From: a virus
IMG/VR virus record: IMGVR_UViG_3300033997_000077
Coordinates: 1-64,000 of that record
Length of the DNA: 64,000 nt
Reading direction: 5' to 3' (one strand)
Shown here: one piece after another, positions 3,069 through 55,647 of the stretch
How the letters are laid out: every line of letters begins with the position of its first letter
Position numbering within the stretch: position 1 is the stretch's first letter
The notes under the pieces: model-generated
Databases searched by the model: none
Told to the model about the DNA's origin: nothing
The model's input: only the letters and a program-made list of their open reading frames with translations
Program-made: the position numbers and the translations under genes

Positions 3069-3785
3069 ATGAAAATCCAACTCTCAATGTCGAAGGCGTT
3101 CTCGGCATTGACTACCGCAGAGCGTGCAAAGTTCGAACGTTGGTTCGGCAAGAGCGTTGTTCGCGACAAGTCCGGTGAACCTCTACGCTGCTATCACGGC
3201 TCACCGAAAGAATTCAAGCAGTTCGACCCCAAGTTCATTGGCTCCGGCGTTGACCAATACGGGATCGGCTACTACTTCACAAGCTCGCCTGACATGGCGA
3301 ACACATACACGCGCAACAAGGTTGATCCCGTCACAGGTAAAGACCGGACGGATCCCGAAAGCAGCAACGTCATGCCCGTGTATCTCCGCATCAAGAAGCC
3401 CATCGACTTTTACCGCCAGCCCAAGATCACACGCGCCCAAGTCAGCAAAATGTTGACGGGGCTGGGCCGCCGCAATCTCGAACGATTCATCCGCGACAAC
3501 TACGACGTGGATTTTCAGGGGATGCAGGCAAGTATCAACGAGTACGCCGAAAACTACATCGGCCACGAACTGGTGCACGCGTCGATGATGCTGTGGAGTG
3601 ACCTTTACGACGGTCATCCTGACGCGGGCCACTTCCCAGAAATCTTCGCCTCGGCCACTGGGTACGACGGCATCATTGCGCGGCGCGCTGGTGGTGACGT
3701 GTACGTTGTCTTCTCACCGTTGCAGATCAAATCCGCTGTAGGTAACAGTGGACGTTACCGTCGCGTTGCCGACATCACCGATTAG
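3069..3785 (+). CDS. ADP-ribosyltransferase-like protein (ART-PolyVal type) with N-terminal S-x-S leader
   Basis: YHGS..F..FD, GIGYYFTSS..A.TY, VMPVYLRIKKP, GYDGII and YVVFSPLQIKS. Starts MKIQLSMS. GAGG RBS. Confidence 0.75.
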   Translation: MKIQLSMSKAFSALTTAERAKFERWFGKSVVRDKSGEPLRCYHGSPKEFKQFDPKFIGSGVDQYGIGYYFTSSPDMANTYTRNKVDPVTGKDRTDPESSNVMPVYLRIKKPIDFYRQPKITRAQVSKMLTGLGRRNLERFIRDNYDVDFQGMQASINEYAENYIGHELVHASMMLWSDLYDGHPDAGHFPEIFASATGYDGIIARRAGGDVYVVFSPLQIKSAVGNSGRYRRVADITD

Positions 3786-3795
3786 GGAACCTCCG

Positions 3796-4308
3796 ATGCA
3801 AATTCAACTCTCACTCTCTGCGGGCCACGTGATTTACTACCGAGGCTTGCAAGTCGCGTTCGACCAGTCAGTGCATGATCGCTCGCACATCATCTGGCTC
3901 ACACCGGATCGTCAGTACGCTATGCGCTACGCTGGTGACCCGCGCCACCTAATGCGCTTCTCTGTCAACGTCAATCACGGCTTCAACTTTGGCTTCCGCA
4001 CGTTCGAGACTGAAGTGAAAATCTCCGACGTTGTTGACCGTATCCGCTCTGCGTTGAACGAGCGCGCTAACAGCGGCGGCATCACCAAGGCTCAGTACAA
4101 GTCCGTGGTCGATCAGCTGAGTGCTATCAGCGACAGCGACACTGGCAAGTTCAAGAAAGTCTGGGCGTGGTACATGGAAGACAAGCGCATTGCCCAAGCG
4201 CTGAAGGCCGCTGGTTACGATCACGTGATCGGCAGAGAAGGCCCGTCGGACAACATACCAACCATTGGCGTGTTCGATCCGAAGAACGTCAAGGTGGAGC
4301 CCGCATGA
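3796..4308 (+). CDS. divergent ART-PolyVal-like protein with S-x-S leader
   Basis: ATG 3796 (MQIQLSLSA). Motifs YYRG, IWLTPDRQYAMRY, LKAAGYDHVI and GVFDPKNVK. Confidence 0.6.
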   Translation: MQIQLSLSAGHVIYYRGLQVAFDQSVHDRSHIIWLTPDRQYAMRYAGDPRHLMRFSVNVNHGFNFGFRTFETEVKISDVVDRIRSALNERANSGGITKAQYKSVVDQLSAISDSDTGKFKKVWAWYMEDKRIAQALKAAGYDHVIGREGPSDNIPTIGVFDPKNVKVEPA

Positions 4309-4877
4309 TCATCCTGCTCAGTACGTCTGACGATGGAATCTATGACGTGCCAAAAACTGAAGAGCACAAGTACGTGTCGAAGGAAGTTGCGGCATTCATC
4401 AAGAAGACGCAAGCTGGCATCTTCAAGCTCTTCCCCGAAGCCAAGAAAAAGTTCAAGGGAGTGCGTTACACAAAGCGCGTGACAAGTTCCCTCGATCCGT
4501 TCGACAGGACGCTAAGAGTCAGCACTATGGCAACTGGCGGCACTGTAGCTGAAGCCCAACGGATCCAAAGCCAAGGCAACAAGTCCGGCTACATGGTGCA
4601 CGATGGGCCGCATGAAGCGTTCACGTCCCTTATCGTGCATGAGACGGCACACTTCATCGACCATGCCGTGAAGCTCAAGTTCAAAAACAACGACGACGTT
4701 TTGATTGAGTACCAACAGGCTAAGCGTGCCTTGCGGAAGCAGATCGGTAACCCGAGTCCTTATGCTGAGACGCACGAAGGCGAATGGTTTGCCGAGCAAT
4801 TTACCGTTGAGTACATGGGGAAAGGGGATGGCCCCCTGTTCACTTTGCTGCGTAGATTTTATGAGGACATGACATGA
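4305..4877 (+). CDS. zincin metallopeptidase-like protein (HExxH) with S-x-S leader
   Basis: ATG 4305 overlaps the upstream stop (MIILLSTS). Motifs LIVHETAHFID and SPYAETHEGEWFAEQF. Confidence 0.7.
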   Translation: MIILLSTSDDGIYDVPKTEEHKYVSKEVAAFIKKTQAGIFKLFPEAKKKFKGVRYTKRVTSSLDPFDRTLRVSTMATGGTVAEAQRIQSQGNKSGYMVHDGPHEAFTSLIVHETAHFIDHAVKLKFKNNDDVLIEYQQAKRALRKQIGNPSPYAETHEGEWFAEQFTVEYMGKGDGPLFTLLRRFYEDMT

Positions 4878-5182
4878 AAGTAGAACTCGGATTGTCGGAG
4901 AGCGCGAAGACCAAGCGCCCTGAGTACAGCATTACCCTCAAGGTCAGTGACTTCGATGCGGCTTCCGCTGTGTTGAAAGTCCTGACCCATATGCAAAAGG
5001 ATTGCCGCGAGGGGCACGGCAGCGAATACATCATGGACGCTGACGGCGACGACAAGGCCACAACCTACATCGACGGTGACGGTGGTGCCAACATTTCCAA
5101 CATCATGTGCAGCTTGGACGGCGGCGAGCCCGTTGAGTTTACGTTCAAGAAGATGCAGGAAGAAGGGCTGAAGGTGCTGTAA
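4874..5182 (+). CDS. hypothetical protein with S-x-S leader
   Basis: ATGA overlap, GAGG RBS, starts MKVELGLSESA. Confidence 0.7.
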   Translation: MKVELGLSESAKTKRPEYSITLKVSDFDAASAVLKVLTHMQKDCREGHGSEYIMDADGDDKATTYIDGDGGANISNIMCSLDGGEPVEFTFKKMQEEGLKVL

Positions 5183-5625
5183 TGGAGATCCGACTTTCCC
5201 TCAGTGCCGACGTCTACTACCACGGCACCAAGAAAAAGTTCAGCGCGTTCTCCGAGTACCGACCAGCATTCTTCACCAAGAGCTTGGACTATGCGAAAGA
5301 GTACGGCCCGATAATCATGGAGGCACATCTCGATATAAAGCATGTGTTCGACACGCGTAACGACAGGCGTGCTGTTCAGATCTACAATGAGAAGTTTCTG
5401 CTGTCAGGGCTTGCGCAGGAGGGTGCGCGTCGCATAACGTTGGGGTCTCCTGTACCATTCAGGGAAGCTGACGAGCTGTGGGCATATCTGGCGATACCGG
5501 AATATCCAGAGCCGCACTACGACGCGATCATCGTTAGTGAAGGGACTGCCGGAACCGCCATGCACGCTGCGGAGCTGTCTTACGTACCATTGCACGTCAA
5601 CCAAATCAAGCTGGTGAAGTCATGA
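5182..5625 (+). CDS. ART-PolyVal-like protein with S-x-S leader
   Basis: Starts MEIRLSLSA. Motifs YYHGT..F..F, FFTKSLDYAKEYG, YDAIIV and SYVPL..NQIK. Confidence 0.65.
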   Translation: MEIRLSLSADVYYHGTKKKFSAFSEYRPAFFTKSLDYAKEYGPIIMEAHLDIKHVFDTRNDRRAVQIYNEKFLLSGLAQEGARRITLGSPVPFREADELWAYLAIPEYPEPHYDAIIVSEGTAGTAMHAAELSYVPLHVNQIKLVKS

Positions 5626-5825: not shown

Positions 5826-5834
5826 GGAAAGCAA

Positions 5835-6656
5835 ATGAAACTCACCATCTCCATGACTTCTACTTCAGCGGTAGCTCCGGAATCGGACTATAGCTGGAGC
5901 ACCTACACATCACTCGCATCATTCGGCCTGCTGTTCCGTGGCAAGGAAGTCCTGCTGTCTAACGGATCTCAGTTCGGCCTTCGCGACGGCAGCAAAGGCG
6001 CTGCTCGCCTGATTATGCGCGGCGAGCCCACCAAGGTGATCACCGTTACTCCGGAAGAACGTACCGTACTGCTGGCACGCGCAACTCCCGTCACTACCAA
6101 GGGCGGCAAGAGAGCTAAGGTGCAAGGTGTGGTGCCTAAGTTTGATGCAGCTTCCTTCTGGAAGACCGACATCGCGCCTGCACTGGCCGAAGCACTGAAG
6201 AAGTTTGCAGGTGCGCGCCCGACTCGTCAGATGGCTACGTACATGAAAGGCATAGCGGAAGCATCCTTGGCGTATGGCGAAGGCCACACCGAAGCACTTG
6301 GTGCAAAGGTACTGACCGCGATCAACAAGCCCGTGCAGTTTGATATGGGAAGCATCGACATATCCAATCCGTTAGGTAAACTGGCGCAGCAGCTGGTTAA
6401 CACCAGCCCTGAGTTGAAGCGCATCTTCGGCGGTAAGGTCAAGCGCAAGACAGTGTTCGACTACTACTCCGTGTATCAGGATTTCCACTACGGTGCCGCT
6501 CACGCGCTACTGGCCGCCGCTATGCTCACTAAGCGTCAGGCCAACGTTGTCAATGTCGCAATGGGCCTTGACTCTAGTGCACGGGATTCGATCCCTGCCA
6601 AAGTCAACGCTGCTATTGAAGACATGGATAGCCGCGCTTCATCCAAGGCAAAGTAA
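5835..6656 (+). CDS. putative internal head protein with S-x-S leader
   Basis: Starts MKLTISMTSTSA. TAAGGA RBS. N-terminal domain resembles those of 33566 and 54982. Confidence 0.65.
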   Translation: MKLTISMTSTSAVAPESDYSWSTYTSLASFGLLFRGKEVLLSNGSQFGLRDGSKGAARLIMRGEPTKVITVTPEERTVLLARATPVTTKGGKRAKVQGVVPKFDAASFWKTDIAPALAEALKKFAGARPTRQMATYMKGIAEASLAYGEGHTEALGAKVLTAINKPVQFDMGSIDISNPLGKLAQQLVNTSPELKRIFGGKVKRKTVFDYYSVYQDFHYGAAHALLAAAMLTKRQANVVNVAMGLDSSARDSIPAKVNAAIEDMDSRASSKAK

Positions 6657-7561
6657 TGCGCATTCAACTGTCACTGTCCGATGATCGCGAACATCAACGC
6701 GCGTTGGACGAAACAGGGTTCTGGGGTCGGCAAGGTGCTGGCCTCATTATCATGTGCTCCGCAACTGGTCGCGTCCTTCTCCCCTACCGCAGCGCGCAAG
6801 TAGAGCAGCCGCATACGTGGGGAACTTGGGGCGGGGCCATTGACGAAGGCGAAGACCCGAAGACCGCCGCCACCCGCGAGATGCGTGAGGAATCCGGCAT
6901 TCGTATCGATCCACGTTCCGTCACCAAGCTGTTCGTGTTTCGCAAGGGGACGTTCACCTACACAACGTTCCTTGCGCTGGTCGCCGAGGAATTCAAGCCG
7001 CGTCTTGACATGGAAACCGAACGCGCTGAGTGGTTTGCGTTGGATAGCCTGCCGAGCCCTTTGCACTTTGGCCTGCGCGCCGTTCTGGACGACTCGAAGG
7101 CGAGAGCCGTAATCGAAACTGCCCAGCAGTCCGTACTCGGCAATCAACTCGAAGCCCTAGTCAAAGAAGTCGAAGCCTACCAAGACAATCATTTTGGTTG
7201 GTACGACAAACAAAAACTGTACGACGCGTTCACGAAACTGCCGGAAGAGTTTCGCATGAAGTTCTATCGCGCACCGCGAGGACTATGGCGAGGCTCTGAC
7301 TACTACAACAACGACCACAACTTCGCTGACTACTGCGCGGGCAAGTTGGTGCCAGCATTGAGCTTCACCAACAACGAAGGTGTCGCCAACATCTTCGGCA
7401 CGCCGAAAAAGTATCACGACATTTGCGTATCGTTTGACGAGTCGCTGGACACGTCAAAGCTGGCGAAAGAGTTGAACCGACGCCGCATCGATCACAGCAT
7501 TGGCGATGATGAAGGCGAAGTCATTCTGATGGGCGTGCGTTACCGACAGACGATGAAGTGA
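6656..7561 (+). CDS. Nudix hydrolase fused to a C-terminal R-S-E type ART-like domain, with S-x-S leader
   Basis: Complete Nudix box GGAIDEGEDPKTAATREMREESG. C-terminal LWRG...ALSFT...A..F...DEGEVIL. Starts MRIQLSLS. Confidence 0.8.
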   Translation: MRIQLSLSDDREHQRALDETGFWGRQGAGLIIMCSATGRVLLPYRSAQVEQPHTWGTWGGAIDEGEDPKTAATREMREESGIRIDPRSVTKLFVFRKGTFTYTTFLALVAEEFKPRLDMETERAEWFALDSLPSPLHFGLRAVLDDSKARAVIETAQQSVLGNQLEALVKEVEAYQDNHFGWYDKQKLYDAFTKLPEEFRMKFYRAPRGLWRGSDYYNNDHNFADYCAGKLVPALSFTNNEGVANIFGTPKKYHDICVSFDESLDTSKLAKELNRRRIDHSIGDDEGEVILMGVRYRQTMK

Positions 7562-8103: not shown

Positions 8104-9051
8104 ATGAAGATTTTGATGTCACTGAGCGCCAGTGATCGGCTGTTCTACTTCACCCAGCTGCCCGCGCTAAAGAAAATCGTAGCAGGCGGCAAGTTGCTGC
8201 TGTCACCGACGGGCACCACTACTTCTGATGCCGCGCACGGCACGAAGTACCCATACTTTATGAGTCTGACCCGCAGCCGCCAAGGCAGTTACCATGCCAG
8301 AGATGAAAGCGGCGTGCTGCTGGAATATGACGGGCGCGTGCTGGGCCAACGCAACGCAATCAAACCAGTCGATTATTGGAATACCATCGAATCCGCGCGC
8401 AAGCGTAAGAGCAGCAACGAGATGGAAGAGCGGCTGTATTCGCGCACTAAGGATCTCGACGTCTACGCTGGCCTGCTGTCTGTGTCTGTCCTGATTGATA
8501 ACGATGGCATCGACCGGACGCTGCGCCTGCAACTCGCTACCGAGTGCAGCAAGCGTAAGATTCCGTTGTTCTTCTACACCGACCGCAAGGCGTGGTTGCT
8601 TGGAGACCGCCGCAAGGCAGTAGGGGCCACCGATACCAAGGCGGCGGAAGCACGCAAGCCCTACGTTGCTCGCAGTGAGTTTGAGAAGAATCAACGATCC
8701 GAACTCACCGATATGCGCGTCCTGTTAGAAACGTTGCTGAAGAATCCGGACTTCAACCTTTACACAGATCTCTACGATCTGAAGGGATTCTCTGATCGCA
8801 CGCGTGGTATGGTGCTGCGTTATCAGCGAGACTTGAAGCCAGCTCTGGTGGCCGAGTTCCAAAACGCAGGCCGTGCACAAAACGGCGGCAATCCAAAAAT
8901 GCGCAAGCGCCTCGATGCTCTGCTCGCCGTAATGAAGAAGTTCAACCTGTCGTCAGCTGAGCAGTTGGCTGACTTTATTGCGCAACGTCACCAAGCCGAC
9001 TGGCAGCGCGACCGCGACGCACGACCCAAAGACGAATCCGATAACTGGTAA
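8104..9051 (+). CDS. putative ART-fold protein with S-x-S leader
   Basis: Starts MKILMSLSAS. LFYFT..L.KI..G.L.LS, FMSLTRS, GVLLEYDG and EMEERLY resemble ART-fold motifs (DarT/DUF2971-like spacing). Confidence 0.5.
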   Translation: MKILMSLSASDRLFYFTQLPALKKIVAGGKLLLSPTGTTTSDAAHGTKYPYFMSLTRSRQGSYHARDESGVLLEYDGRVLGQRNAIKPVDYWNTIESARKRKSSNEMEERLYSRTKDLDVYAGLLSVSVLIDNDGIDRTLRLQLATECSKRKIPLFFYTDRKAWLLGDRRKAVGATDTKAAEARKPYVARSEFEKNQRSELTDMRVLLETLLKNPDFNLYTDLYDLKGFSDRTRGMVLRYQRDLKPALVAEFQNAGRAQNGGNPKMRKRLDALLAVMKKFNLSSAEQLADFIAQRHQADWQRDRDARPKDESDNW

Positions 9052-9063: not shown

Positions 9064-9909
9064 ATGCAAGTACAACTCTCACTCTCGAACCTCCCGACTC
9101 CGCCTGAACTTTTCGTGCGCCTCATTGCCCAACATGCGGGCTTGAGTGGCATCAAGACCTCCAAGCGTGGCACCAAATACACGGCAACTTCCGATTCAAC
9201 CTCCATTATCTATGACCAACAGGGCGGCCAAGTCTTCGTCAAGAAGGATGGCAAAGTCTTCATGGACTTCCCAGCTCCCCGCGTAGTCGGTAAGACTCTG
9301 ACCAGCGCGCAGTCTACAGCGGCTGCCAAACGCGGCGCTCAGATCAAAGCCAAGACCAAAGTTGAGGCACCGAAAGCAGGGTCACCGGAAGCACTCAAGA
9401 AGATCAAGTTCACGCCAAAGGCCCCAACTAAGCTGACCAAAGAGCAGCGCGCCGAGGTTAACGCGAAGTATGGCCCGGCGTTCGCCAAGAAAGTTATCGC
9501 GCTCGGCACTGCGCTGCTGGCTATCAAGGAAGTGAAACGCGAAACAGAGGAAGGCCCGCACGTCATGTTCTGGCCGTTCGCCTTCGGCCCAGTGACGCGC
9601 AAGGTCAAAACCGTATACGGTTCGATGCCGCGCTCCGACATTTATTCAATGATGGGCTCCGCACCTAGTATTCCGTTCAAGTCAGTCAGGGCAGTTGAGT
9701 TCCGTGGGTTTGCCAAGTGCCGCGTGTGCGGTATCAACCTCGGCGGGGCCACTCAATATTCCGCTGCTGGCGTTGCGCGCCCGAGCAACATTGCTGCCCA
9801 CTACCGCAGCCACGGCATTAACTGCAACTTGGTTGAGAAGGTTGCCACCGACAAGACTACTGGCAAGATGTACCGTGTTCTCTACGTCGGCGGGTTGAAC
9901 TCCATCTAA
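9064..9909 (+). CDS. basic hypothetical protein with C-terminal CxxC/HxxxH putative Zn site and S-x-S leader
   Basis: Starts MQVQLSLS. FRGFAKCRVCG...HYRSH. TAAGGA RBS. Confidence 0.65.
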   Translation: MQVQLSLSNLPTPPELFVRLIAQHAGLSGIKTSKRGTKYTATSDSTSIIYDQQGGQVFVKKDGKVFMDFPAPRVVGKTLTSAQSTAAAKRGAQIKAKTKVEAPKAGSPEALKKIKFTPKAPTKLTKEQRAEVNAKYGPAFAKKVIALGTALLAIKEVKRETEEGPHVMFWPFAFGPVTRKVKTVYGSMPRSDIYSMMGSAPSIPFKSVRAVEFRGFAKCRVCGINLGGATQYSAAGVARPSNIAAHYRSHGINCNLVEKVATDKTTGKMYRVLYVGGLNSI

Positions 9910-9918: not shown

Positions 9919-12564
9919 ATGCTCCATATTTCAACATCGGCACTGAAGCCGAGTCAGTATCGCAAGTTCGTTAAGGGATGGGACAAGGGACGTTACGCTG
10001 ACATCTTTGCTGAGTACACGTCCGACCCAAAAGCCTACCGCTTCACCCTGCCGCTGACCAAGACCAAAGCGCGCGACGCCGAACCCGTCGAGCCATTGCC
10101 GTCAGTAAAGGCCGCCGTGGAATCTGCGGGCTACGTTGTCGATGACTACATTGGCGGCTACGCCGTTGACTCTGCGACTGGCAAGCGCCGTGTTCGTATC
10201 GGCAAGCTCTTGAAATCACCGACTGCCGTGCAGGAGTTTGCAAACGACAAGCGCCGTGGCGCAGCAAAGCAAAAGGCGGGCGCAATGTCCGTCGTGATCT
10301 CTCGTCACCCATACGACGTTGCGGGCATGTCCACCGACCGAGGCTGGACAAGCTGCATGAACTTGATCGACGGTGTGAACAAGCACTATGTAGCCAAGGA
10401 CGTCAAGGAGGGGTCGCTCATTGCGTACCTCGTTGATTCCAACGACCTGAATATCCAATCGCCCAAGGCCCGCATTCTGATGCGCGTGTTCAAGGCGAAA
10501 GGAAAGATCGGTCTGTTCCCGTCCGGCGTCTACGGCACTGCGTCCGATGCGTTCGCGTTGACCGTCGCCAAGTGGTGCAGCGAAGTGAACTCCAAGTTCT
10601 TCAAGATCCCATACGGCACGACCATGAAAATGCTCGCGTCTCTGTATCCGGACTCTTCGACTCGGGTAGTGCACTTGCCGCAAGAGGATAACGCCGCCGA
10701 GAACCTGCGTGTGCTGCTCGACTCTCCGACCGCACCGTCCACCATATCGGTCGAGAAGCTGCGCAGTAAGTTTGTTGTGCTTGTCGACAACATGGCAGAC
10801 CAAGAGGCGAGGGCTGCGGGCTTTAACCCCAATTCGTATGACGCCAACGCCAAACTGGCGGACAGCCTTATCAAATCCACCCGCGTGTTCGAAGCCAAGT
10901 ACCCGTCCTCTGTGAAGGCGATTCGTTCGGTGTTCGTACCTCGCGCCATGATCCATCTACGCTCCAATGAGTTAGCCACTAACGTCCAGCGCCTGCCTGA
11001 TGCGAGTCGTGAATATCTGACCAACCACTTTGCGCAGTTTATCACGTTGGTTCGCACCAACGCCGCGAAGAAGAAACCCAACCTCAAGGTGCTCAAGCAG
11101 TTCGAGACCGTAATGGAAATCCGAGGGTTTGAATCGATCATAATGAGCATGTCTTCGGATCACTATAAGGGCAGCCCTTACTCCGGCGATGATTGCATTG
11201 CCTTCATCAAAGACCTGTTCAAGTTGGCGTACTATCAGGGCGAAAACATCTATTCGAATGAACCGTCCTACGTAGCTACTCTCTCCGATTTGGATCGCAG
11301 TACCGCTGCTGAGCTGCTATTCGGCAACTTCCTAGAAGACGCGGACGCCAAGAAACTTGCGGATTCCTTCAAGGAAGGCACTGACGATTACTTGCTCGCC
11401 AACTTTGCCAACTACTGCTACGGTCGTATCACGATCAAGCAGCTGCTAAAGCAAGTTGGAGCCGAGGGCCTTGTGGAGATCAGTGGACTCAAGATCCGCT
11501 TTGCCGAACAGTACAGCCCGAAGCCGGAGTTCATCGCATTTGCGCGCGTGAACGCAATGCCAATGAGCAGATCAGTCGGGACGTTGCGTGCAGCACTTAA
11601 TACCAAGAGCTTGGAGTCAATGTTCGAGACACTGAAGGCAGGTAATCCAGAGTCTCTAGCTATTGCGCTGCTGGCCGCGCACCTCAGACGTGAAGGGTAC
11701 AACTCTTCCAAGTTCGTGGAAGAGTGGGTGGCCGCCGCTCCTTCGGATCCGGCATTGCTTGGCAGCGAGATCCTGATCCGCACCGCTAAGTCACTTTACA
11801 CTGCGGAGAAGAAAGGTTTGATGCACACCAAGAAAGATGTGATACGCTTCGACGAGAGCGCACTGTTTAAGAAATTGTCTAAGGCAATGCGTAGCGCAAT
11901 GGTTGCCAGTATCAGCACGGAAGCCGCTGCGCTGGACACGATGGAGAAGATGTTCAACGCGCACGACCCTAATACTTCGATGGATGTTTCCTATCAGGGC
12001 CTGTCTCCCAAGCAGATCGAAGCGCTTGGATCTCCTCTGGCCCCGCACCTGATCGTAGCTTTGCCGTTTGTCACTGGATGCGACGGATTGCTCGGTGCGG
12101 ATTCCCCACGCATGTTCGCAAATTCCCTGCCGAATAAGCGGTCGCGTGAGATGGAGCTGCTGCTGTCAATGTACTACATCTTCGACACCGAAGATTTCGA
12201 TAGCAAAGGGCGCATTGAGTACGCGGAGCAGCTGCTGTCGCTACCAGTCCTTGCGTTGATAGCGAGCCCTGAGTGGGGGCAGATGGTTGCGGGCGTTGAC
12301 GCGTTCGTCGCCAAGTTGCCGACCAAGTTGCGAACTGCCATCGGCAACAAGACTTTCCCTGCTCTGCTCAAGGCCGGTATTCAGGGGACGGTTGATCGCG
12401 TGACTGTGGATGAAGATGAAGACTTCGATGCAGACACTCCGCTGCTGCGCCGTGTTGAGCTTGTTCTCGAATCGAATCTGCATCGCCGCTCTGCGCTACG
12501 CAACATCAAGCCTGAAGATCTCACACGTTACGCCGCAGCCCTCATTGCTCTGGCACAGGAGTAA
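9919..12564 (+). CDS. large putative virion protein, paralog A (conserved N-domain, variable helical C-part)
   Basis: Starts MLHISTSALKPSQYR. Shares SRHPYDVAGMSTDRGW.SCM with the next gene. Confidence 0.8.
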   Translation: MLHISTSALKPSQYRKFVKGWDKGRYADIFAEYTSDPKAYRFTLPLTKTKARDAEPVEPLPSVKAAVESAGYVVDDYIGGYAVDSATGKRRVRIGKLLKSPTAVQEFANDKRRGAAKQKAGAMSVVISRHPYDVAGMSTDRGWTSCMNLIDGVNKHYVAKDVKEGSLIAYLVDSNDLNIQSPKARILMRVFKAKGKIGLFPSGVYGTASDAFALTVAKWCSEVNSKFFKIPYGTTMKMLASLYPDSSTRVVHLPQEDNAAENLRVLLDSPTAPSTISVEKLRSKFVVLVDNMADQEARAAGFNPNSYDANAKLADSLIKSTRVFEAKYPSSVKAIRSVFVPRAMIHLRSNELATNVQRLPDASREYLTNHFAQFITLVRTNAAKKKPNLKVLKQFETVMEIRGFESIIMSMSSDHYKGSPYSGDDCIAFIKDLFKLAYYQGENIYSNEPSYVATLSDLDRSTAAELLFGNFLEDADAKKLADSFKEGTDDYLLANFANYCYGRITIKQLLKQVGAEGLVEISGLKIRFAEQYSPKPEFIAFARVNAMPMSRSVGTLRAALNTKSLESMFETLKAGNPESLAIALLAAHLRREGYNSSKFVEEWVAAAPSDPALLGSEILIRTAKSLYTAEKKGLMHTKKDVIRFDESALFKKLSKAMRSAMVASISTEAAALDTMEKMFNAHDPNTSMDVSYQGLSPKQIEALGSPLAPHLIVALPFVTGCDGLLGADSPRMFANSLPNKRSREMELLLSMYYIFDTEDFDSKGRIEYAEQLLSLPVLALIASPEWGQMVAGVDAFVAKLPTKLRTAIGNKTFPALLKAGIQGTVDRVTVDEDEDFDADTPLLRRVELVLESNLHRRSALRNIKPEDLTRYAAALIALAQE

Positions 12565-41069: not shown

Positions 41070-41861
41070 ATGAGCGAATTTGATTCAGTGAAGGGGGCGT
41101 TCCGCTCCCTGTCCTTTGACGTCGGTGTCACTATCCCGCGTGGCCTTGACTTGCACAAGCTGCAAGCCTCCCGCCAGTCAAAGTCGATTTCAGTTCGCGG
41201 CGAAAGCATGGGCGTTCGCGAATCCGTTAACCTCGACGTGAACACTTGGCTGCCCGCCGCTGCCGAACACTACAACATTAGCCGCGACATTCGTGACTAC
41301 GTGTTGCATCCGACAGTCGTCAACGTGTCTGGCATTCCCAACACCAACGCCGACGGGTTCGGCCTGAAAGATTGGCTGACCTTCCGCCCCGAGTTCGGCA
41401 TGCTGTCCTACAAGACATTCAAAGGCAAGCCCACTTTCATCGAGCACAACAACCAGAACCACCGCGTCGCCCGAGGTGCAATCTTCGATGCGCAAATGTC
41501 GAAGTTGCAGGGCTTCCATAAAGCGCATGGCCGTCTGATTCTGCTGCTCGCCTACGACCGCAACCTTGAGCCCGAGCTGTGCCGCGACATCTTGTCTGGC
41601 GTGCACAACACCTACTCCAAGGGCACTTGGTACAAGGCGTACACCTGCTCGATTTGCGGCGAGACCTTCACTGGTAGCAGCAAGCGCTTGTGCGGTCACG
41701 TTGGCAATCGCGTAATCCGTATGCCGGACGGTCGCCTTGCTTATCGCCAGTGCCACATTCTCGAAGGCTTCGAAACCAGTGCGGTTCGCAATCCGGCCTT
41801 CGTGTGCGCATCCCCCGATCCCAAATCCGTAATGGATCCTCGCAATAAGGAACGTTGGTAA
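41070..41861 (+). CDS. prohead (capsid maturation) protease, HK97-gp4/assemblin-like, with Zn-ribbon insert
   Basis: GGAG RBS then ATG 41070. PN.N.DGF, F.GKP...EH (His), YSKG (Ser), CSICG...C.H and ETSAV.NPA. Confidence 0.75.
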   Translation: MSEFDSVKGAFRSLSFDVGVTIPRGLDLHKLQASRQSKSISVRGESMGVRESVNLDVNTWLPAAAEHYNISRDIRDYVLHPTVVNVSGIPNTNADGFGLKDWLTFRPEFGMLSYKTFKGKPTFIEHNNQNHRVARGAIFDAQMSKLQGFHKAHGRLILLLAYDRNLEPELCRDILSGVHNTYSKGTWYKAYTCSICGETFTGSSKRLCGHVGNRVIRMPDGRLAYRQCHILEGFETSAVRNPAFVCASPDPKSVMDPRNKERW

Positions 41862-46045: not shown

Positions 46046-48340
46046 ATGTCTAAGCTCTACAAAGGCATAGTCGTGGCAGCTAACAGCAAGGCGGGAGTTG
46101 TAGCAGCGTTTTCCGACGTTGCTACTGGGAAGAATGCGCGTTTCATGGCATCGGAATCCGGTGCCGTGTTCGCAACTAACGGCATTGCCTATGACCCGTG
46201 CGGTTACGGTACTGTACGTGATTTTGATGGGGTGGAGGATATGGAATTCGCCTCTGCTAGTGCGGAAGCGGAAGCTAACCTGACTGTGTGTCTGGACGGC
46301 TGCCAAAACTTCATCCTGTCTGAATCACAGTTGCAACGTTGCCCTTCCTGCTCCGCAGCCCTCACCGCAAGCGAGGAAGATATTCACGACCTCGTTTTCG
46401 GCTCTGAGTCTGACGCCCTGCTGCAAGGTAGCGACCCTCTGTTCTGCGGAACTGAAGAGCAAGCCGCTGCTTTTGCCCGTGCACTGCGCACAGGCATCGT
46501 GCCATCGTTGTCGGGGGAACTCGCAACGTTGAACTATGACCCGTACAGCGGTCAAGAGTCGGTACGAAGCTGCTCCAACGTTGCTGAATTCAGCGGCGTG
46601 TTTCACAAATTCAAGTGCGCTGCTGGTTGCAGCCACCCCGTAACGTTGTCCACTTCGGCGGACATTGTTTTCTGCGCTCACTGTAACGCTCCCCTTGAGG
46701 AACCCGAGAACATGATCAAGAAAATTGGAAGAATTGATCAGCGTTTGCACGTCTTCGCTCCGTCAGTGTCCGGTGCCCTTAACGGGCTGCGTGATCTGCT
46801 GATCAACGGCGCGGCTGGCGCAAACCACTTCGATCACAAGAACCCCGACGAGAACTTCATCTCCAACTCCGCCTGTGCGTTCAACCCGTACACTGGTAAC
46901 AACGTTGCCAGCCGCGTAGTTGATTCTCTGTCCGGTACTGGTGCTGAAATCGCGCACGACGCGCTGAACATCCACCTGTTCAAGTGCCACGATGGTTGCG
47001 GTTTCATGGCGTGCAGCTCTGCTGATGCCAACTTCTGCTCCGAGTGTGACGCTCCGCTGGTAGAGCCGAGCGAAGAAGATCTGGCTGACCTGCCTGCTGC
47101 CGACACCGTTGGCGACGACTCTTCCCTCGAAGATCTGGAATCCGATCTGGCCGAGCTGGACGCTGACGAAGAAGACCTGCTGTCTGCTTCCGGCGAGGAA
47201 GAAGAGTTCGAAGACGAGGAAGAAGAAGACCTCGAATTCGACGACGGCGACGAAGGTGACTTCGACGAATCCAGCCTCTCCGGTGACGACTACGACGACG
47301 AAGATGAAGGCGACGATATGCCTGACTTCGACGACGAAGACGACGAAGAGGAGGACGAAGAGGACGAAGAGTCCGACTTCGAAGCCGAAGGCGACTTCTC
47401 TCTGGAATCCACTTCCGGCGACGAAGGTGGCGAAGATGGCGGTGAAGATACCGACACTATGCTGACCGACGACGAGCTGGCCGAGCTGGATTTTGAAGGC
47501 GAAGACGATGACATGGAATCCGAGAGTTCGGTAATTTCTATCAGCGCGGCGGAAGCCTTGGTAGCTGATGCGGAATTCAACCTCGACTCCTTGTCCTGTG
47601 TGTTCGACGGTAAGAGCCGTTACCATGCGATCTACGACAACCTGCCGCTGGGTTCCCTGAACCTGACTGCTCTGTCTGCCGCATTGGGTGACGAAGACAA
47701 GGCCAAAGTTCTGTTCCGCAACGGTACTCTGCCTTCAATCCTCAGCGCCTCCGCACGCGAGAACGGTCTGGAGCAGGCTCTGACCGACTTGGGCTTTACT
47801 CCGGTTGAGTTCAACGTTAGCGTCAGCAACGTTCTGCAACAACGTGCAAGCAAGTCCGCTGACGAGCGTGCCGACCGTCTGCAAAACGAAATCAACACCA
47901 TCGTTGCAGATACCACTGAGCGCTACCAAGCCAGCGTCAGCACCGCGATGATCGGTCTGACTCGCGGCTTCTGGAAGCAGGATGACAACGCTGTTGCCTC
48001 CGCTCTGGTGAACAAGATGGTTGCAAGCGGCATGAGCCTGAGCAGTGCCCGTGAGATGGTAACCTCGGCGTTCGCCGAGCAGGGTGCCGAACTGATGGCA
48101 ACCGTATTCTCCCGCGCGCAGTCTCTGAGTGCGATGTCTGTCGAAGGCTACAACGAAGTAAGCCGTGCCATCGAAGACATCAACGTTGCCTCTGTTTCTT
48201 CCGGTGCTGTAGAAATCGGCAAAGTTGTGCGCAAGCCAGCTGACGCCACCAACACCGAAGTCAAGATTGCCTCCAACTCTTCTGACGCTCTCGCATGGGA
48301 ACAGAAGATGGCGGCCCTCGGTCTGAATAACCGTCGCTGA
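46046..48340 (+). CDS. putative head scaffold/core protein (3 Cys4 repeats, acidic linker, helical C-domain)
   Basis: Lies between the protease and MCP. Highly acidic, about 25 S-x-S motifs. GAGG RBS. Confidence 0.7.
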   Translation: MSKLYKGIVVAANSKAGVVAAFSDVATGKNARFMASESGAVFATNGIAYDPCGYGTVRDFDGVEDMEFASASAEAEANLTVCLDGCQNFILSESQLQRCPSCSAALTASEEDIHDLVFGSESDALLQGSDPLFCGTEEQAAAFARALRTGIVPSLSGELATLNYDPYSGQESVRSCSNVAEFSGVFHKFKCAAGCSHPVTLSTSADIVFCAHCNAPLEEPENMIKKIGRIDQRLHVFAPSVSGALNGLRDLLINGAAGANHFDHKNPDENFISNSACAFNPYTGNNVASRVVDSLSGTGAEIAHDALNIHLFKCHDGCGFMACSSADANFCSECDAPLVEPSEEDLADLPAADTVGDDSSLEDLESDLAELDADEEDLLSASGEEEEFEDEEEEDLEFDDGDEGDFDESSLSGDDYDDEDEGDDMPDFDDEDDEEEDEEDEESDFEAEGDFSLESTSGDEGGEDGGEDTDTMLTDDELAELDFEGEDDDMESESSVISISAAEALVADAEFNLDSLSCVFDGKSRYHAIYDNLPLGSLNLTALSAALGDEDKAKVLFRNGTLPSILSASARENGLEQALTDLGFTPVEFNVSVSNVLQQRASKSADERADRLQNEINTIVADTTERYQASVSTAMIGLTRGFWKQDDNAVASALVNKMVASGMSLSSAREMVTSAFAEQGAELMATVFSRAQSLSAMSVEGYNEVSRAIEDINVASVSSGAVEIGKVVRKPADATNTEVKIASNSSDALAWEQKMAALGLNNRR

Positions 48341-48401: not shown

Positions 48402-49115
48402 ATGATTAACCTGCAAGCAACTCGCGTTCTCAAAACCAGCTACGCACCGAAGGCCGCTGGTGTTTTCATCACCGAAGAAGGCCAAGCTCTGGTCAGCGTG
48501 AAAGAAGACGGCATCCGTGTCGTGCGTCCTTCTACTGGTGCTCAAGACGAACAGTTCGCAGGCTTCCGCCTGTCCCGTGCTGTTCCGCCTCAGTACGTGC
48601 CGAAAGTAGAAGAGTTCAAGATCTCCAAGCGTGACGGTGCCGCCGTTGCTACCTTCGAGGCCATCCGTGTTCCGGTTGCTGGTAAGCTGCTGGTTCGTAT
48701 CGGTGATGCCGTAGTTACCGACATCGGTGCAGACGCTGCTGCTCCGGACGCCGCTGGCAAAGTGAACCGTGTCAAAGACACCTTCTACTTCCACGATGCG
48801 GATCTGGGCAAGCCTGCTGAAATCCAGTACCACTACGAGCCGACCGTTACCGAAGCCCAGCAGATCACTGGCGACGCTCCGCACGGCGGCCATCCCGGCA
48901 ACGCTCAAAACCAAGAGTCCTTCTTGGTTGTAGGCGACATCGCTACCAGCCACTTCGATTCCAGCGTTGACTGGACTGGCGTGCTGAACCCGCGTCTGGG
49001 GCCGGATGGTATCCTGACCACTGCTGGTCAAGGTACTCTGCTGAAGAACGTAACCGTTCTGAACAGCCCGTCAGCTGAAGGTGAATTCCTGCTGCTGGAA
49101 GTTCACGCTTACTAA
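48402..49115 (+). CDS. putative capsid decoration/minor head protein
   Basis: Immediately upstream of the MCP, beta-rich, with codon usage suggesting high expression. Confidence 0.6.
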   Translation: MINLQATRVLKTSYAPKAAGVFITEEGQALVSVKEDGIRVVRPSTGAQDEQFAGFRLSRAVPPQYVPKVEEFKISKRDGAAVATFEAIRVPVAGKLLVRIGDAVVTDIGADAAAPDAAGKVNRVKDTFYFHDADLGKPAEIQYHYEPTVTEAQQITGDAPHGGHPGNAQNQESFLVVGDIATSHFDSSVDWTGVLNPRLGPDGILTTAGQGTLLKNVTVLNSPSAEGEFLLLEVHAY

Positions 49116-49197: not shown

Positions 49198-50301
49198 ATG
49201 ACTCAATATGCAAAAGCCAAGGGCGCTGTTGTTGCCGTTACTCGCGATGGCCGTCCCGTTACCGACCTGCCGATGTTCTCCGCTTCCAGCGGCGAGCTGA
49301 ATGCTTCCAACAAGAAAGACGCTCTGGCTCTGGGCCAGCGTTACATGGACATGATGAAGAACGGCGAAGTCGTTCTGGTTCAAGAAGATCAAGTCGGCTC
49401 CATGCAGGCTTCTATGTCCAGCGCTGACCGCATCCGTCTGGGCAACGAAGTGTTCATGGAAGCTGCCAACGATCCGTCCAAGTGGGCGTCTCTGGGTTCC
49501 AGCATCGTTGCACGCGTTGAAGACCGTGCCGAGCGTTCCGGTCTGATGCGTAACCTGCTGCAAGGTAGCACCTTGCGCCAAGGCGAAATCGCCCGTGTCG
49601 AACTGAAACAGCACGTGTGCCACGCCGTGGTCGCAACTGGCCCGTCCGATCTGGGTTACCAAATCCTGCGCGGTAAAGTCTTCAACCCGCAAGAGTTCGA
49701 AGTCAAATCCGCTGTACGTGTTCCGGTAATCGACATGCACCAGATCGCTGGTGACCTGATGGGCCGTGCCGAGCGTGACGCTCACCAGTCCGTAGTGGTC
49801 AAAGAAGACCGTCTGTTCATGGACGCTGTGTATCAGGCAGTTGGTCGTGGCAACCCGATCACCTACCTGCACGACAAACTCCTGCCGGGTCACTTGGCCG
49901 CCATGCGCGACCAGATTGACAGCTGGAACATTCCGGTCGCGGGCACCGTTCTGTCTTCCGACTTCTGGACTGACATGATCGGCAGCTCCGTGTGGATGGA
50001 AGCTCTGGAACCTGTTACCCGTTACGAACTGCTGAGCACTGGCCGTCTGGCTACTCTGCTGGGTATGGATCTGATCACCGACGGTTTCCGTGATCCGACC
50101 CAACGTGTTCTGGAACGTGGCACCCTGTTTACCTTCGCCACTCCGGAATACCTCGGCGCGTACACCACTCGCGGCGGCGCAACCAGCGAAGCGACCACTG
50201 GTGCCAACGAAGGCAACACCGACAAGGGCTGGCTGATCAGCGAGATCCTGTCTATGGTTGTTGCTAACACCCAAGGTCTGGCTCTGGCTAAACGTCAATG
50301 A
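49198..50301 (+). CDS. major capsid protein (HK97 fold, probable)
   Basis: AGGA RBS then ATG 49198, 367 aa, strong codon bias, head-module position. KEDR.F and G.L.T.LG..LITD patterns. Confidence 0.75.
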   Translation: MTQYAKAKGAVVAVTRDGRPVTDLPMFSASSGELNASNKKDALALGQRYMDMMKNGEVVLVQEDQVGSMQASMSSADRIRLGNEVFMEAANDPSKWASLGSSIVARVEDRAERSGLMRNLLQGSTLRQGEIARVELKQHVCHAVVATGPSDLGYQILRGKVFNPQEFEVKSAVRVPVIDMHQIAGDLMGRAERDAHQSVVVKEDRLFMDAVYQAVGRGNPITYLHDKLLPGHLAAMRDQIDSWNIPVAGTVLSSDFWTDMIGSSVWMEALEPVTRYELLSTGRLATLLGMDLITDGFRDPTQRVLERGTLFTFATPEYLGAYTTRGGATSEATTGANEGNTDKGWLISEILSMVVANTQGLALAKRQ

Positions 50302-50729
50302 AGCTGAGCGCCAGTTTGACAGCAATGTCACTCTCGGCGCTTCGTAGCGGTCGCGTACAGGACGCTGCGGAACTCCTAAGTCAGGCGGCATTCGCCGATG
50401 ACGCGCAAGCACTCATTGCATCTCTCGTAGATGACAACGAAGTTGCGTGCAGTTTGAGTTCCGCAATCCTTGCGCCGGAATCGGAACTGGGGGCAGTCAT
50501 TGACTCTCTCAGTTCCGAACTGTCGCGTATCGACCGACTCAGCAAGATGTCCGATCCTCTGGAAGACATCTTGAGCGTCGCGGATGACGACTCGGATGAC
50601 GATGACCAAATTGACCTCGGCGTACTCGACTTCGAAGACGAAGAAGAGGAAGACGATGACTCTTTCGAATCAGAAAGTTCCGACGTTCAACCTTCCCTGA
50701 TCAAGCTGACATTCAGCGAAGTGGACTAG
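50298..50729 (+). CDS. small acidic head core protein with several S-x-S sites
   Basis: Starts MKLSASLTAMSLSA; internal CSLSS, DSLSS and ESESS. Coupled to the MCP (ATGA). Confidence 0.65.
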   Translation: MKLSASLTAMSLSALRSGRVQDAAELLSQAAFADDAQALIASLVDDNEVACSLSSAILAPESELGAVIDSLSSELSRIDRLSKMSDPLEDILSVADDDSDDDDQIDLGVLDFEDEEEEDDDSFESESSDVQPSLIKLTFSEVD

Positions 50730-51931: not shown

Positions 51932-51956
51932 ATGTCCATTCGAATGGAGAATCCCA

Positions 51957-53669: not shown

Positions 53670-53671
53670 CC

Positions 53672-54409
53672 ATGAAGCTGAACATCAAGACCGTATCCGT
53701 TTCCGCAGCCGCTGACTTTCTGGATGCCGACAAGCACCTCAATCTGAAAAAGGTCGAAGCCGCTGGCAAGAAGATCGTTGCTGCCGCTGAGCGTTTCGCC
53801 AAGGCTCAAGCCAAGGGTGACGCAGTAGCCGCCAAGGTTATCGCTCGCATCGGATCTAAAACTCCGAAGCAGATCGAGAAAGCGATGAAGCCTGTTGGCT
53901 ACTACGTGATGAACAAGAAAGTGCACTCCAAGGTAGAGAACTACTCTGCCGTTAAGGCCAAGAAAGGCGATGCCGCCTATCTGCGCAAGCGCGCTTTCCG
54001 TGTTATGAGCCGCAAGACTCCGACCGATGCCTACGCCGTCCTCTCTCCGATCTACGACGTTCGCATTCTTGGCAAAGAAGCTGCTGCCATCCAGCGTGAC
54101 CTGATCAAGGCCATCGAAACCCATATGGGCGGACTGGACAAGACCAAGGGCCGCGCCAGCGAAATCACTCAGGCGACCCAAGCAGCCAACACCGCTGACT
54201 TCCGCAAGTCCGCTGATTTGGTGATTGGTACTCTGATCGGTGCTGCTGGCTCCAAGATCAAACAAGCCAACGTGTTCGAGTCTACTCCGGCGCGTGGCGT
54301 TCCCGCCGTTTACATCAACGTGCCCGGCGCTGGTGTTCTGGTTCTGCGTCATGCAACCAAAGCACAGCTGGCAGCTGCCAAGAAAGCCGCCGCAACTCCG
54401 GCCCAGTAA
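53672..54409 (+). CDS. Lys/Ala-rich basic protein with S-x-S leader
   Basis: Starts MKLNIKTVSVSAA. Strong codon bias; sits between sheath and tube. Confidence 0.7.
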   Translation: MKLNIKTVSVSAAADFLDADKHLNLKKVEAAGKKIVAAAERFAKAQAKGDAVAAKVIARIGSKTPKQIEKAMKPVGYYVMNKKVHSKVENYSAVKAKKGDAAYLRKRAFRVMSRKTPTDAYAVLSPIYDVRILGKEAAAIQRDLIKAIETHMGGLDKTKGRASEITQATQAANTADFRKSADLVIGTLIGAAGSKIKQANVFESTPARGVPAVYINVPGAGVLVLRHATKAQLAAAKKAAATPAQ

Positions 54410-54421
54410 TCAGGAGACACC

Positions 54422-54937
54422 ATGTCTAAGCCTACCCTTGACGAGTTCGAGTCCACTGGCGACCCGATGCTCGATGACAACTTCGAGATCATCTTCTCCA
54501 ACTTGCCTGTCGACGGCATGGACGGCGCGAAAAGCCTGCGCATTCATACCAAGACTGGTACGCTGCCCGGCGCAACCATTGAAGAAGTGATCAAAGAAGC
54601 GTTCGGTTATCAACTCCGCTACGCGGGCCGCAAGACTTTCAGCGGCTCGTTCCAGATGGAGTTCAACGAAAACCATCAAGCGAAGATCCTCAAGATCATG
54701 CGCAAGTGGCACGCGAAAATCCGTACCACCAAGACCGCACTCGGTCGCTTCAAGAAAGAGTACGCTGCAACCGTAACCTTCCGCCTGCTGGATCAAACTG
54801 GCGCGATGGTGGATGAAACCACCATCAAAGGCGTGTGGCCGGGTCAAGTACCTGACTATCAGTTCAGTGGTGCGGCGCAAGCTGTTCCCTGTTCTATTGA
54901 CTTCAAGTTCGACTACATCCTGACCGATGCGGACTGA
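54422..54937 (+). CDS. tail tube protein (T4 gp19-like)
   Basis: LPG..IE, YAGR..F, F.E...W, L.D..G and G.WP..V. 171 aa, downstream of the sheath. Confidence 0.85.
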   Translation: MSKPTLDEFESTGDPMLDDNFEIIFSNLPVDGMDGAKSLRIHTKTGTLPGATIEEVIKEAFGYQLRYAGRKTFSGSFQMEFNENHQAKILKIMRKWHAKIRTTKTALGRFKKEYAATVTFRLLDQTGAMVDETTIKGVWPGQVPDYQFSGAAQAVPCSIDFKFDYILTDAD

Positions 54938-54950
54938 GCGCAGTAGCGAT

Positions 54951-54972
54951 AAGGGGGCCTAGTGCCCCCTTT
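54951..54972 (+). terminator. Rho-independent terminator
   Basis: AAGGGGGC-CTAGT-GCCCCCTTT. Confidence 0.6.
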
Positions 54973-54981
54973 GGAGGATCT

Positions 54982-55647
54982 ATGCTCTTAAATTTGAGCC
55001 TATCCGCCGCCAAGCCGCAGTACACTGAATTCGACTGGTTCAAGTTTACTGGGGTGCGTGGTGTATATCTCGAAAACAAGGAATACGAAGTCCAAATCGA
55101 CGCGGGCGAACGCTTCGGTGTTTTCATCGCGCAGCGTGGCGTTATCTACGTTGTGCACGAAGACCTGCCGACTGAGCTGTTCAAGTGCGATGCGAAAACC
55201 GCACGCTCTCTAATGAGTCGAGCAACGTACTACAAGGGACGCGTTAAGGGCAAAGCTGTAAACAACAGCAGACTTGTCAAAGGCGCGAACGTTCCACGTG
55301 ACCCGACTGCGCAGCCGCCAGCAGACCCAGCACCGGAAACCAAAACCAAAGCTGTGGGCAACGCCAAAGACATCTTGACCGCAATCCGCAAGCAATCGTT
55401 CGCCAAGCCGCGCAGTATCACCTACATGCGCAGTGCCGATATGGGCGAGGGCAAAGTGTTCTACTACGACGCGACTTCTTCCTACGTTGAATCCAAGTTG
55501 AAGGCCGCACAGTGGGAGAAGCACGCGGAGAAGATGCTGCTTGCCGCAATGGCGGGCACCAGTCACGAAGTCGGGGCAGTCGTGCAGCAACCAACATCAA
55601 AGACGCAGCCCGAGCGGGCGGTGTTGATGGTTAAGGTGGACACATGA
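54982..55647 (+). CDS. putative head protein with S-x-S leader
   Basis: Starts MLLNLSLSAA. GGAGG RBS. N-domain is similar to those of 33566 and 5835. Confidence 0.65.
   Translation: MLLNLSLSAAKPQYTEFDWFKFTGVRGVYLENKEYEVQIDAGERFGVFIAQRGVIYVVHEDLPTELFKCDAKTARSLMSRATYYKGRVKGKAVNNSRLVKGANVPRDPTAQPPADPAPETKTKAVGNAKDILTAIRKQSFAKPRSITYMRSADMGEGKVFYYDATSSYVESKLKAAQWEKHAEKMLLAAMAGTSHEVGAVVQQPTSKTQPERAVLMVKVDT

Follow-up and report, generated by a model that had tools for sequence, protein, structure and literature searches.

In the first 64 kb of the 129,992-bp IMG/VR virus record IMGVR_UViG_3300033997_000077 (CheckV completeness 49%), a stretch called the window here, 16 encoded proteins carry at or near their N-termini a common short leader that ends in two serines one residue apart (S-x-S). 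The same residue pair is concentrated in a head-module protein encoded near the head maturation protease, recurs at a conserved place in the N-terminus of the protease, and has its counterpart in A-x-A in related lineages. What does the leader do? On comparative sequence grounds, we give about an even chance to the reading that it is a head-loading propeptide resembling the capsid targeting sequence (CTS) of phage T4 and is cut at small-x-small by the head protease. A preliminary description of this DNA had proposed a T4-like tag that loads injected cargo into the head and is cleaved there; comparison among genomes supports this core idea, while the cleavage rule needs changing and the assignment of the enzyme is less settled than proposed.

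PHROG and tblastn searches identify the phage as a jumbo myophage. Nearly all genes in the window lie on the plus strand. They include genes for a head maturation protease (41070; genes are cited by their start positions), for the major capsid protein (49198), for two sheath proteins (20551 and 51957), for the tube and for an NAD ligase. The protease shares 50-53% identity with its homologues in Erwinia phages Alexandra and Yoloswag, Dickeya phages AD1 and JA29 and Yersinia phage fHe-Yen9-02; with its counterpart in Pseudomonas phage PaBG it shares 39%. The PaBG paper names this assemblage the Lupandier group and gives two sheath genes as its hallmark (PMC7412058). A closer relative, the 229,746-bp IMG/VR genome G001 (CheckV 100%), has a capsid protein that is 98% identical.

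A shared leader at gene starts

All 16 N-termini listed in the preliminary description are present at the positions given there, on the plus strand, and for 13 of these 16 genes no other start codon lies between the upstream stop and the ATG. Genes 3796 and 4305 have in-frame GTGs further upstream that overlap the preceding gene, and in the 39817 protein the motif occupies residues 9-16 rather than the extreme N-terminus. The regular expression ^M.[ILV].[ILM][SG].S matches 9 of the 130 called gene starts of the record, compared with 1 of 987 internal methionines (Fisher p 2.7e-8) and 5 of the 3,439 ATGs found elsewhere in the six frames (p 1.5e-10).

The single internal match lies beyond the window, at residue 300 of 66749-68881, and has its own GAGGA ribosome-binding site. 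This 710-aa open reading frame contains an N6/N4 DNA methylase domain (residues 25-279, E 3e-42) followed in frame by the leader MEIKLSVSA; in G001 the counterpart of its C-terminal part is a separate 407-aa gene that starts with MEIQLSVSA. The leader at residue 300 marks either an internal start or a fusion that is cut at the leader.

The signal resides in the protein, as the preliminary description had it: DNA upstream of the tagged starts shows no conservation, and the leaders draw on both families of Ser codons, TCN and AGY. Among the genes 3069, 3796, 6656 and 9064, which we refer to as island genes, up to 21 of 24 leader nucleotides are shared, as against 8-9 in other pairs. Ser6 is encoded by TCA in five of the eight canonical leaders (3069, 3796, 6656, 8104, 9064), although no Ser codon is rarer in the record (250 of 2,626). 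Given this rare codon and the nucleotide identity of the island leaders, some leaders look recently copied; the TCA bias could reflect such copying of leader DNA or a constraint on the mRNA start region.

Could the leader be a remnant of common descent? Three more tagged genes begin just past the window (64561, 64964 and 66032). When 19 tagged proteins were compared without their first 16 residues, they fell into 17 BLAST families at E 1e-3, and paralogy was rejected as the cause of the shared leader. The earlier claim that the downstream domains are unrelated is therefore largely sustained. It is qualified by two BLAST-linked pairs, 9919/12567 and the weakly linked 5835/54982, and by a few remote Pfam links through ART-PolyVal (3069, 5182) and KMPT-N (33566, 54982).

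Across 42 leaders from five genomes the consensus is M-[EKQ]-I-x-[VIL]-S-L-S-[AK]. Ser fills position 6 in 37 of them and Leu position 7 in 32; position 8 is fixed by the regular expression used. Glu occurs between the two serines, at position 7, in only 1 of the 42 and is conserved at no leader position; S-x-S is followed by A, K, D or N. The leaders are 7-14 residues long and their hydrophobic positions only alternate. A signal peptide was rejected from these sequences, which have no hydrophobic core long enough for membrane insertion before an A-x-A site.

The residue pair in head-module proteins

The protein of gene 46046, which is flanked by the protease region on one side and the scaffold-like and capsid genes on the other, is the most enriched in S-x-S of 102 proteins in the record: 25 are seen against 9.1-9.2 expected, and 0 of 300 shuffles reach 25. 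Second is the 39817 protein, with 7 against 2.4-2.6 expected. In 6 of 6 S-type genomes the 46046 orthologue ranks first for this pair (21-29 seen, 7.6-12.7 expected; 102-211 proteins each); it is not first in PaBG, Vibrio phage GR7B or P. putida phage Aura. The residue that follows S-x-S in these core proteins is A, G or S at 72 of 129 sites, compared with 427 of 1,579 elsewhere (p 6e-11; G001 was left out as a near-duplicate, and N-termini were left out of the background).

What takes the place of S-x-S in the other phages? In PaBG the protein most enriched in A.A is the 46046 orthologue, gp82 (27 seen, 13.1 expected, rank 1 of 207), and the same is true of the Aura orthologue (21 seen, 10.1 expected, rank 1 of 152). 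A survey of 80 IMG/VR loci, covering 10 kb on each side of protease relatives and grouped into 47 clusters at 80% protease identity, extended this comparison. Of the 47 clusters, 6 have an S-type core, with S-leaders in four and A-leaders in none; 12 have an A-type core, with A-leaders in four (MNIAIAAAPAEF, MFVALALAPA, MKVEVALASN and MDVQIALAAS) and S-leaders in three. Eight more are untyped, and 21 have no core orthologue within reach. The proposal that the motif is Ser-specific does not hold strictly, and small-x-small is the better description because related lineages use A-x-A in the same places. A strict switch of the P1 residue from Glu to Ser, entertained when the PaBG leaders were first read as Glu-type, was dropped because PaBG gp82 is enriched in A.A and not in [SAG].E, and because deeper lineages have clear A-x-A leaders.

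In public records the 46046 orthologues are labelled 'ATPase' (AD1, Yoloswag; PHROG 20988) or '60S ribosomal-like protein L2-A' (PaBG). Pfam searches of the 46046 protein at E up to 10 gave no ATPase family; it has repeated CxxC zinc-ribbon-like motifs and acidic linkers instead, and both public names look unfounded.

Distribution of the leader among relatives

Cross-genome counts used a second, strict expression, ^M.[ILVMF].[ILVMF]S.S. It matches 8 of 130 proteins in the record, 5 of 249 in G001, 6 of 320 in AD1, 8 of 312 in JA29, 8 of 305 in Yoloswag and 7 of 299 in fHe-Yen9-02, and none in PaBG (0/323), GR7B (0/232) or Aura (0/234); internal-methionine controls gave 0-1 of 987-1,969. The tag is therefore not peculiar to the present phage, being common to cultured Erwinia, Dickeya and Yersinia jumbo phages and to many IMG/VR contigs.

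In the KMPT-N family of gene 54982, M1, S6, S8 and A9 are invariant in 12 aligned sequences with identity down to 33%, and the linker directly after S-x-S-A varies in length and sequence. Homologues of other tagged genes begin with varied sequences. The JA29 orthologue of 3069 has the leader MELLISLS before the same ART-PolyVal domain, and homologues of 9919 start with MEIEVSLS in JA29 and MEIVVSLS in Yoloswag. Homologues of 33566 begin with MLSQS (JA29), MHSLS (Yoloswag, fHe-Yen9-02), MVLSVSAS (AD1) or MLMIAEA (PaBG), and those of 50298 in AD1, Yoloswag and fHe-Yen9-02 with MK(T/S)LSGSL or MSKVCSSL. A homologue of 53672 is present in G001; searches of AD1 and PaBG gave no match. Homologues of the Acb1/LigT-like protein bear a leader in this phage and Yoloswag, bear one of another form in PaBG, and lack one in AD1, JA29 and GR7B. 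The tag is modular, coming and going on the same enzyme family.

Seven genes of the island 4305-8100 have no counterpart in G001 despite the 98% identity of the capsid proteins. They encode the zincin, the small acidic protein, the second ART-like protein, a Cys-rich protein (a 67-aa open reading frame), the 5835 protein, the Nudix protein and the product of gene 7618.

The head protease and its neighbours

A structural model of the protease, built from 45 homologues (pLDDT, predicted local distance difference test, 84.6), predicts a gp21/assemblin fold. The best match in the PDB is T4 gp21 (5jbl_A; Z 10.4, root-mean-square deviation 3.0 Å over 139 of 165 residues, VIA-align), followed by the assemblins of varicella-zoster virus and human cytomegalovirus as well as Kaposi's sarcoma-associated herpesvirus (Z 7.2, 5.7 and 4.5). 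Foldseek against the PDB placed T4 gp21 at E 0.14 only, and phmmer against the PDB, at E up to 10, gave no gp21 match. All 45 sequences have H126 and S183, the candidate catalytic residues. T4 gp21-like prohead serine proteases form MEROPS family S77. The N-terminus of the protease bears [S/A]-x-[S/A]-F at a conserved place across lineages (RSVSF, RSESF, ESKSF, FAPAF, AMAF, ATAF). A small residue before the cut has a precedent within this fold, since herpesvirus assemblins cleave after Ala, at YLQA-T and VQA-S (PMC4498786).

Downstream of the protease gene lies 41861, whose product ends in an HExxH metallopeptidase domain. It has 1,379 residues here and in G001 and about 365-375 in AD1, JA29, Yoloswag and fHe-Yen9-02. 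The alignment with those four phages covers the C-terminal HExxH part alone, about 180 residues, and the N-terminal extension of about 1,150 residues has no match there. A glycosyltransferase-like gene (38745-39866) immediately precedes the head genes, an arrangement kept in AD1, where it is annotated 'beta-1,4-glycosyltransferase', and in PaBG.

PaBG is the only experimental anchor for these comparisons. According to PMC7412058, some of its virion proteins undergo proteolytic processing, the mass of the capsid protein falls by about 20%, several gel bands contain gp80 and gp81, and gp83 is among 14 virion-identified proteins (Table 1 of that paper). The N-terminus of gp83 is leader-like, MLIKINLLEAVAAK. 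The word 'protease' has 0 occurrences in PMC7412058. In the capsid protein of the window, S72-M-S74 was considered as a maturation site and rejected: it is indistinguishable in this respect from F-M-E88/A89, and an S-x-S within 20 residues is not rare by chance.

Putative cargo

The tagged proteins of the present phage include ART-PolyVal, NUDIX, HETAH zincin, KMPT-N and Acb1 domains together with strongly basic and strongly acidic proteins. Of the ART-PolyVal and KMPT-N assignments in the window, three exceed their gathering scores: 3069 (90.8 bits against 31.2), 54982 (51 against 28.9) and 33566 (32.9 against 28.9). Tagged proteins of the relatives have ART-PolyVal and KMPT-N (JA29), NUDIX (Yoloswag) and GNAT and PGDYG (fHe-Yen9-02) domains. 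Just past the window, 64964-65518, with the leader MNINLGLNMVSES, matches Pfam Acb1, an anti-CBASS phosphodiesterase (E 1.3e-16, 61 bits against a cut-off of 27). Should the tag load cargo, the phage would pack this anti-defence enzyme in advance and inject it.

Such effector domains were assigned to injected polyvalent proteins by Iyer et al. 2017, as cited in PMC7824862. Here each domain is encoded by a separate gene, of 102-881 aa, with no fusion into one very large multidomain protein. The tagged genes stand among late structural genes, a position that fits late synthesis, packing and delivery with the DNA, as for T4 Alt.

Proposed mechanism and alternatives

How might such a leader work? 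In the mechanism that we favour, the tagged proteins would be made late, from genes interspersed among head and tail genes, and the leader would steer them into the core of the assembling prohead. There the gp21/assemblin-fold protease (41070-41861) would take off the leader at small-x-small, that is, S-x-S here and A-x-A in deeper relatives, most likely after the second small residue. The same protease would dice the S-x-S-studded 46046-48340 protein and trim its own N-terminus. The trimmed cargo, comprising ADP-ribosyltransferases, a Nudix protein, an Acb1-like phosphodiesterase, a zincin and basic and acidic proteins, would stay in the head and enter the host with the DNA. We infer head targeting, the scissile bond, the identity of the cutting protease and injection from three lines of comparison: the concentration of S-x-S in a head-module protein near the protease in all S-type genomes, its conservation in the protease N-terminus, and the polyvalent-type effector domains on tagged proteins.

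Several observations weigh against this mechanism. The co-variation between leaders and core is imperfect, with S-leaders in three A-type-core clusters and eight clusters untyped, and survey leaders were counted at any methionine with at least 70 residues downstream, so that loci with a single hit may be due to chance. The PaBG leaders hold both A-x-A and Glu, and A-x-A and x-x-E are not cleanly assignable in them. At the sequence level the protease matches no Pfam or PDB family (Pfam and phmmer searches at E up to 10 gave zinc-finger noise only). A T4-like [LIVF]-x-E-A site is kept in the capsid protein of seven of nine genomes, here as F86-M-E88/A89; since the loss of about 20% from the PaBG capsid protein is matched equally well by E88/A89 and by S72-M-S74, the serine protease may still cut after Glu. 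Finally, a KMPT-N/HExxH gene directly follows the protease gene in 6 of 6 S-type genomes.

Which enzyme, then, would cut the leader? The preliminary description named the 41070 protease; the [S/A]-x-[S/A]-F in its own N-terminus speaks for that assignment, and the adjoining metallopeptidase gene and the retained hydrophobic-x-E-A site of the capsid protein speak against it. If the KMPT-N/HExxH domain at the C-terminus of 41861-46000 were the leader peptidase, the serine protease would stay Glu-specific for the capsid. Peptidases of the KMPT kind have been proposed to process polyvalent cargo proteins, and the AD1 homologue, gp141, has two KMPT-N domains (E 8.8e-30). The domain had no match in PaBG, GR7B or Aura (E above 0.17), and a zincin occurs within 10 kb in five of the six S-type-core clusters, as against one of the 12 A-type ones. 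Yet no zincin lies within 10 kb on either side of the protease at survey loci with three (L146), four (L147, L152, L155) or two (L150, L148) S-leaders, one cluster with a zincin, L136, is A-type in its core and shows no S-leader, and A-type leaders and A.A-rich cores are found in lineages without a zincin. We consider cleavage by the metallopeptidase unlikely, and the serine protease is favoured over the neighbouring zincin as the enzyme that cuts the leader. A different possibility, to which we give a small chance, is that the leader is left uncleaved and, like an encapsulin cargo-loading peptide, docks as a short beta-strand on the surface of a scaffold, capsid interior, portal or chaperone, with S-x-S as a binding feature. 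The alternation of hydrophobic and polar residues in M-x-h-x-h-S-h-S (h, hydrophobic) suits a beta-strand, and the tag is always at the extreme N-terminus. Repetition of the pair 21-29 times in one head-module protein, with a small residue preferred next, however, is a degradation-like pattern, and the linker directly after S-x-S-A is variable.

The leader might also act outside the virion: as a feature of the translation start or of the mRNA, as an N-terminal signal for stability or degradation, or as a signal that times early effectors. The rare TCA at Ser6 and the pairs of leaders that share 19-21 of 24 nucleotides would agree with this, as would the many tagged proteins that are enzymes unusual in virions. 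We nevertheless find a role outside the virion quite improbable: the remaining leaders share only 8-9 of 24 nucleotides and have AGY Ser codons, the leader amino acids are kept between phages whose proteins are 33-55% identical, head-module proteins and the protease contain the motif as well, and the tagged genes stand among late structural genes. That S-x-S is a sequon for O-glycosylation or phosphorylation, and not for proteolysis, is very improbable indeed. It would give a role to the glycosyltransferase gene (38745-39866) found just upstream of the head genes here, in AD1 and in PaBG; PaBG, however, has the glycosyltransferase and no S-x-S leaders, and Ala stands in place of Ser at the same positions in related lineages, a substitution that a hydroxyl-dependent modification would not tolerate.

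Extending the head-loading propeptide to the whole assemblage gives a wider picture, which we hold tentatively and rate somewhat short of an even chance. In the Lupandier group and its uncultured kin, a portable address of eight residues, cut at small-x-small and not after Glu, would pre-load anti-defence and takeover enzymes for injection, and Ala and Ser would switch jointly in the leaders, the core and the protease propeptide. If this is true, the T4 capsid-targeting principle extends to a separate, widespread group of giant phages, and head proteases of the gp21 fold are not all Glu-specific. Injected cargo could be read from sequence, including an Acb1-like anti-CBASS enzyme and several ADP-ribosyltransferases that would act before phage gene expression. 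An eight-residue tag for loading chosen proteins into a very large capsid would also be a practical tool. The hypothesis is directly testable, as the cultured phages Alexandra, Yoloswag, AD1, JA29 and fHe-Yen9-02 bear the same tag.

Features of the window

The coordinates of the tagged genes and of the head module are collected in Table 1. The two tail sheath genes, 20551-22209 and 51957-53669, are divergent, and AD1 and PaBG have a separate matching sheath gene for each. A megablast search with 20 kb of the window against a phage collection gave no match.

Table 1. Tagged genes and head-module genes of the window
Coordinates	Strand	Feature	Match or counterpart
3069..3785	+	Tagged, MKIQLSMS; ART-PolyVal ADP-ribosyltransferase	Pfam PF18760, E 1.7e-25
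3796..4308	+	Tagged, MQIQLSLS; no Pfam family	G001 counterpart also MQIQLSLS
4305..4877	+	Tagged, MIILLSTS; HETAH zincin motif	ATLF PF07737, E 2.4e-4, below cut-off; no G001 counterpart
4874..5182	+	Tagged, MKVELGLSES; small acidic protein	No G001 counterpart
5182..5625	+	Tagged, MEIRLSLS; weak ART-PolyVal match	E 3.8e-5, below cut-off
5835..6656	+	Tagged, longer leader MKLTISMTSTS; basic protein	
6656..7561	+	Tagged, MRIQLSLS; NUDIX hydrolase	PF00293, E 6.6e-17
8104..9051	+	Tagged, MKILMSLS(AS); basic protein	
9064..9909	+	Tagged, MQVQLSLS; very basic, net +27	G001 orthologue starts with MKIQLSIS
9919..12564	+	Tagged, short leader MLHISTS; 881 aa, paralogue of 12567	
12567..14774	+	Tagged, short leader MINISTS; 735 aa	
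33566..35875	+	Tagged, MQLSISSIASTS then KMPT-N domain; very acidic, net -123	
39817..41067	+	Head-module protein directly upstream of protease; S-x-S at residues 12-14 (PICLSES)	phrog_31537
41070..41861	+	Prohead serine protease, predicted T4 gp21/assemblin fold; N-terminus with R-S-L-S-F-D	phrog_18299 'head maturation protease', E 1e-87
41861..46000	+	Large protein, C-terminal HExxH (HEFAH, residue 1293) metallopeptidase of KMPT kind; rival candidate for leader peptidase	phrog_37079
46046..48340	+	Zn-ribbon-rich acidic head-module protein, 764 aa, rich in S-x-S; candidate core/scaffold substrate	
48402..49115	+	Virion structural, scaffold-like protein	phrog_16710; aligns as PaBG gp81 orthologue
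49198..50301	+	Major capsid protein; S72-M-S74 and conserved F86-M-E88/A89 in N-terminal quarter	phrog_2522
50298..50729	+	Tagged, after capsid gene, leader MKLSASLTAMSLS; acidic	
53672..54409	+	Tagged, between sheath and tube genes, MKLNIKTVSVS; basic	
54982..55647	+	Tagged, MLLNLSLS then KMPT-N domain	PF20294, E 1.7e-13

Comparison with known systems

Titles and abstract openings on prohead protease motifs, capsid targeting, assemblin sites and the named relatives describe no S-x-S or A-x-A leader. Which known systems, then, come nearest? In Staphylococcus phage 80alpha, an N-terminal extension of the capsid and scaffold proteins is cut by the host L27 protease Prp, a cysteine protease of Firmicutes, at a motif that ends in F-F/A. 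Like the leader described here, it is short, has alternating hydrophobic residues and is common to several phage proteins; unlike it, it depends on a host cysteine protease, and the cultured relatives of the present phage infect Gammaproteobacteria. The encapsulin cargo-loading peptide is another short address that directs cargo inside an HK97-fold shell, usually C-terminal and not removed. Signal peptidase I follows an A-x-A rule, with small residues two positions apart before the cut; unlike its substrates, the leader has no hydrophobic core of signal-peptide length.

Polyvalent proteins share the ART-PolyVal, KMPT-N, zincin and GNAT families with the tagged proteins and are likewise proposed to be injected with DNA. 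Their domains are fused in one giant protein, whereas here separate genes have their own leaders; the words 'leader' and 'capsid targeting' have 0 occurrences in PMC7824862. Herpesvirus assemblins belong to the same protease fold superfamily and cleave after a small residue, Ala, followed by Ser or Thr. They serve eukaryotic viruses, however, and their sites lie in the scaffold/protease precursor, not in a portable N-terminal cargo tag. In phiKZ-like phages, many head and ejection proteins have propeptides cut by one prohead protease, and core proteins have multiple sites. P1 is Glu there (S/A/G-X-E in phiKZ), and the propeptides are long, with no shared 8-mer. The SPN3US protease gp245 removes N-terminal propeptides by cutting after A-X-E, with a small P3 and a Ser P1' preferred (PMC10052503). 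The PaBG paper places the Lupandier group far from the phiKZ-like viruses (PMC7412058).

By analogy, the closest known system is the T4 CTS. The CTS of T4 IPI-III and Alt is removed by gp21, which cuts after Glu at L/I-x-E. This short N-terminal peptide stands on proteins that are otherwise diverse, most of them directed against the host, and brings them into the scaffolding core (PMC3012670). The present leader differs in having S-x-S, or A-x-A in relatives, and not Glu at the presumed cut site, and in its length of eight residues versus about 10; the two sequences are unrelated, and about 20 genes bear the leader in half a genome. In both cases, one short N-terminal peptide stands on otherwise unrelated proteins of one phage, the protease is of the same predicted fold, and an ADP-ribosyltransferase is among the actual or putative cargo.

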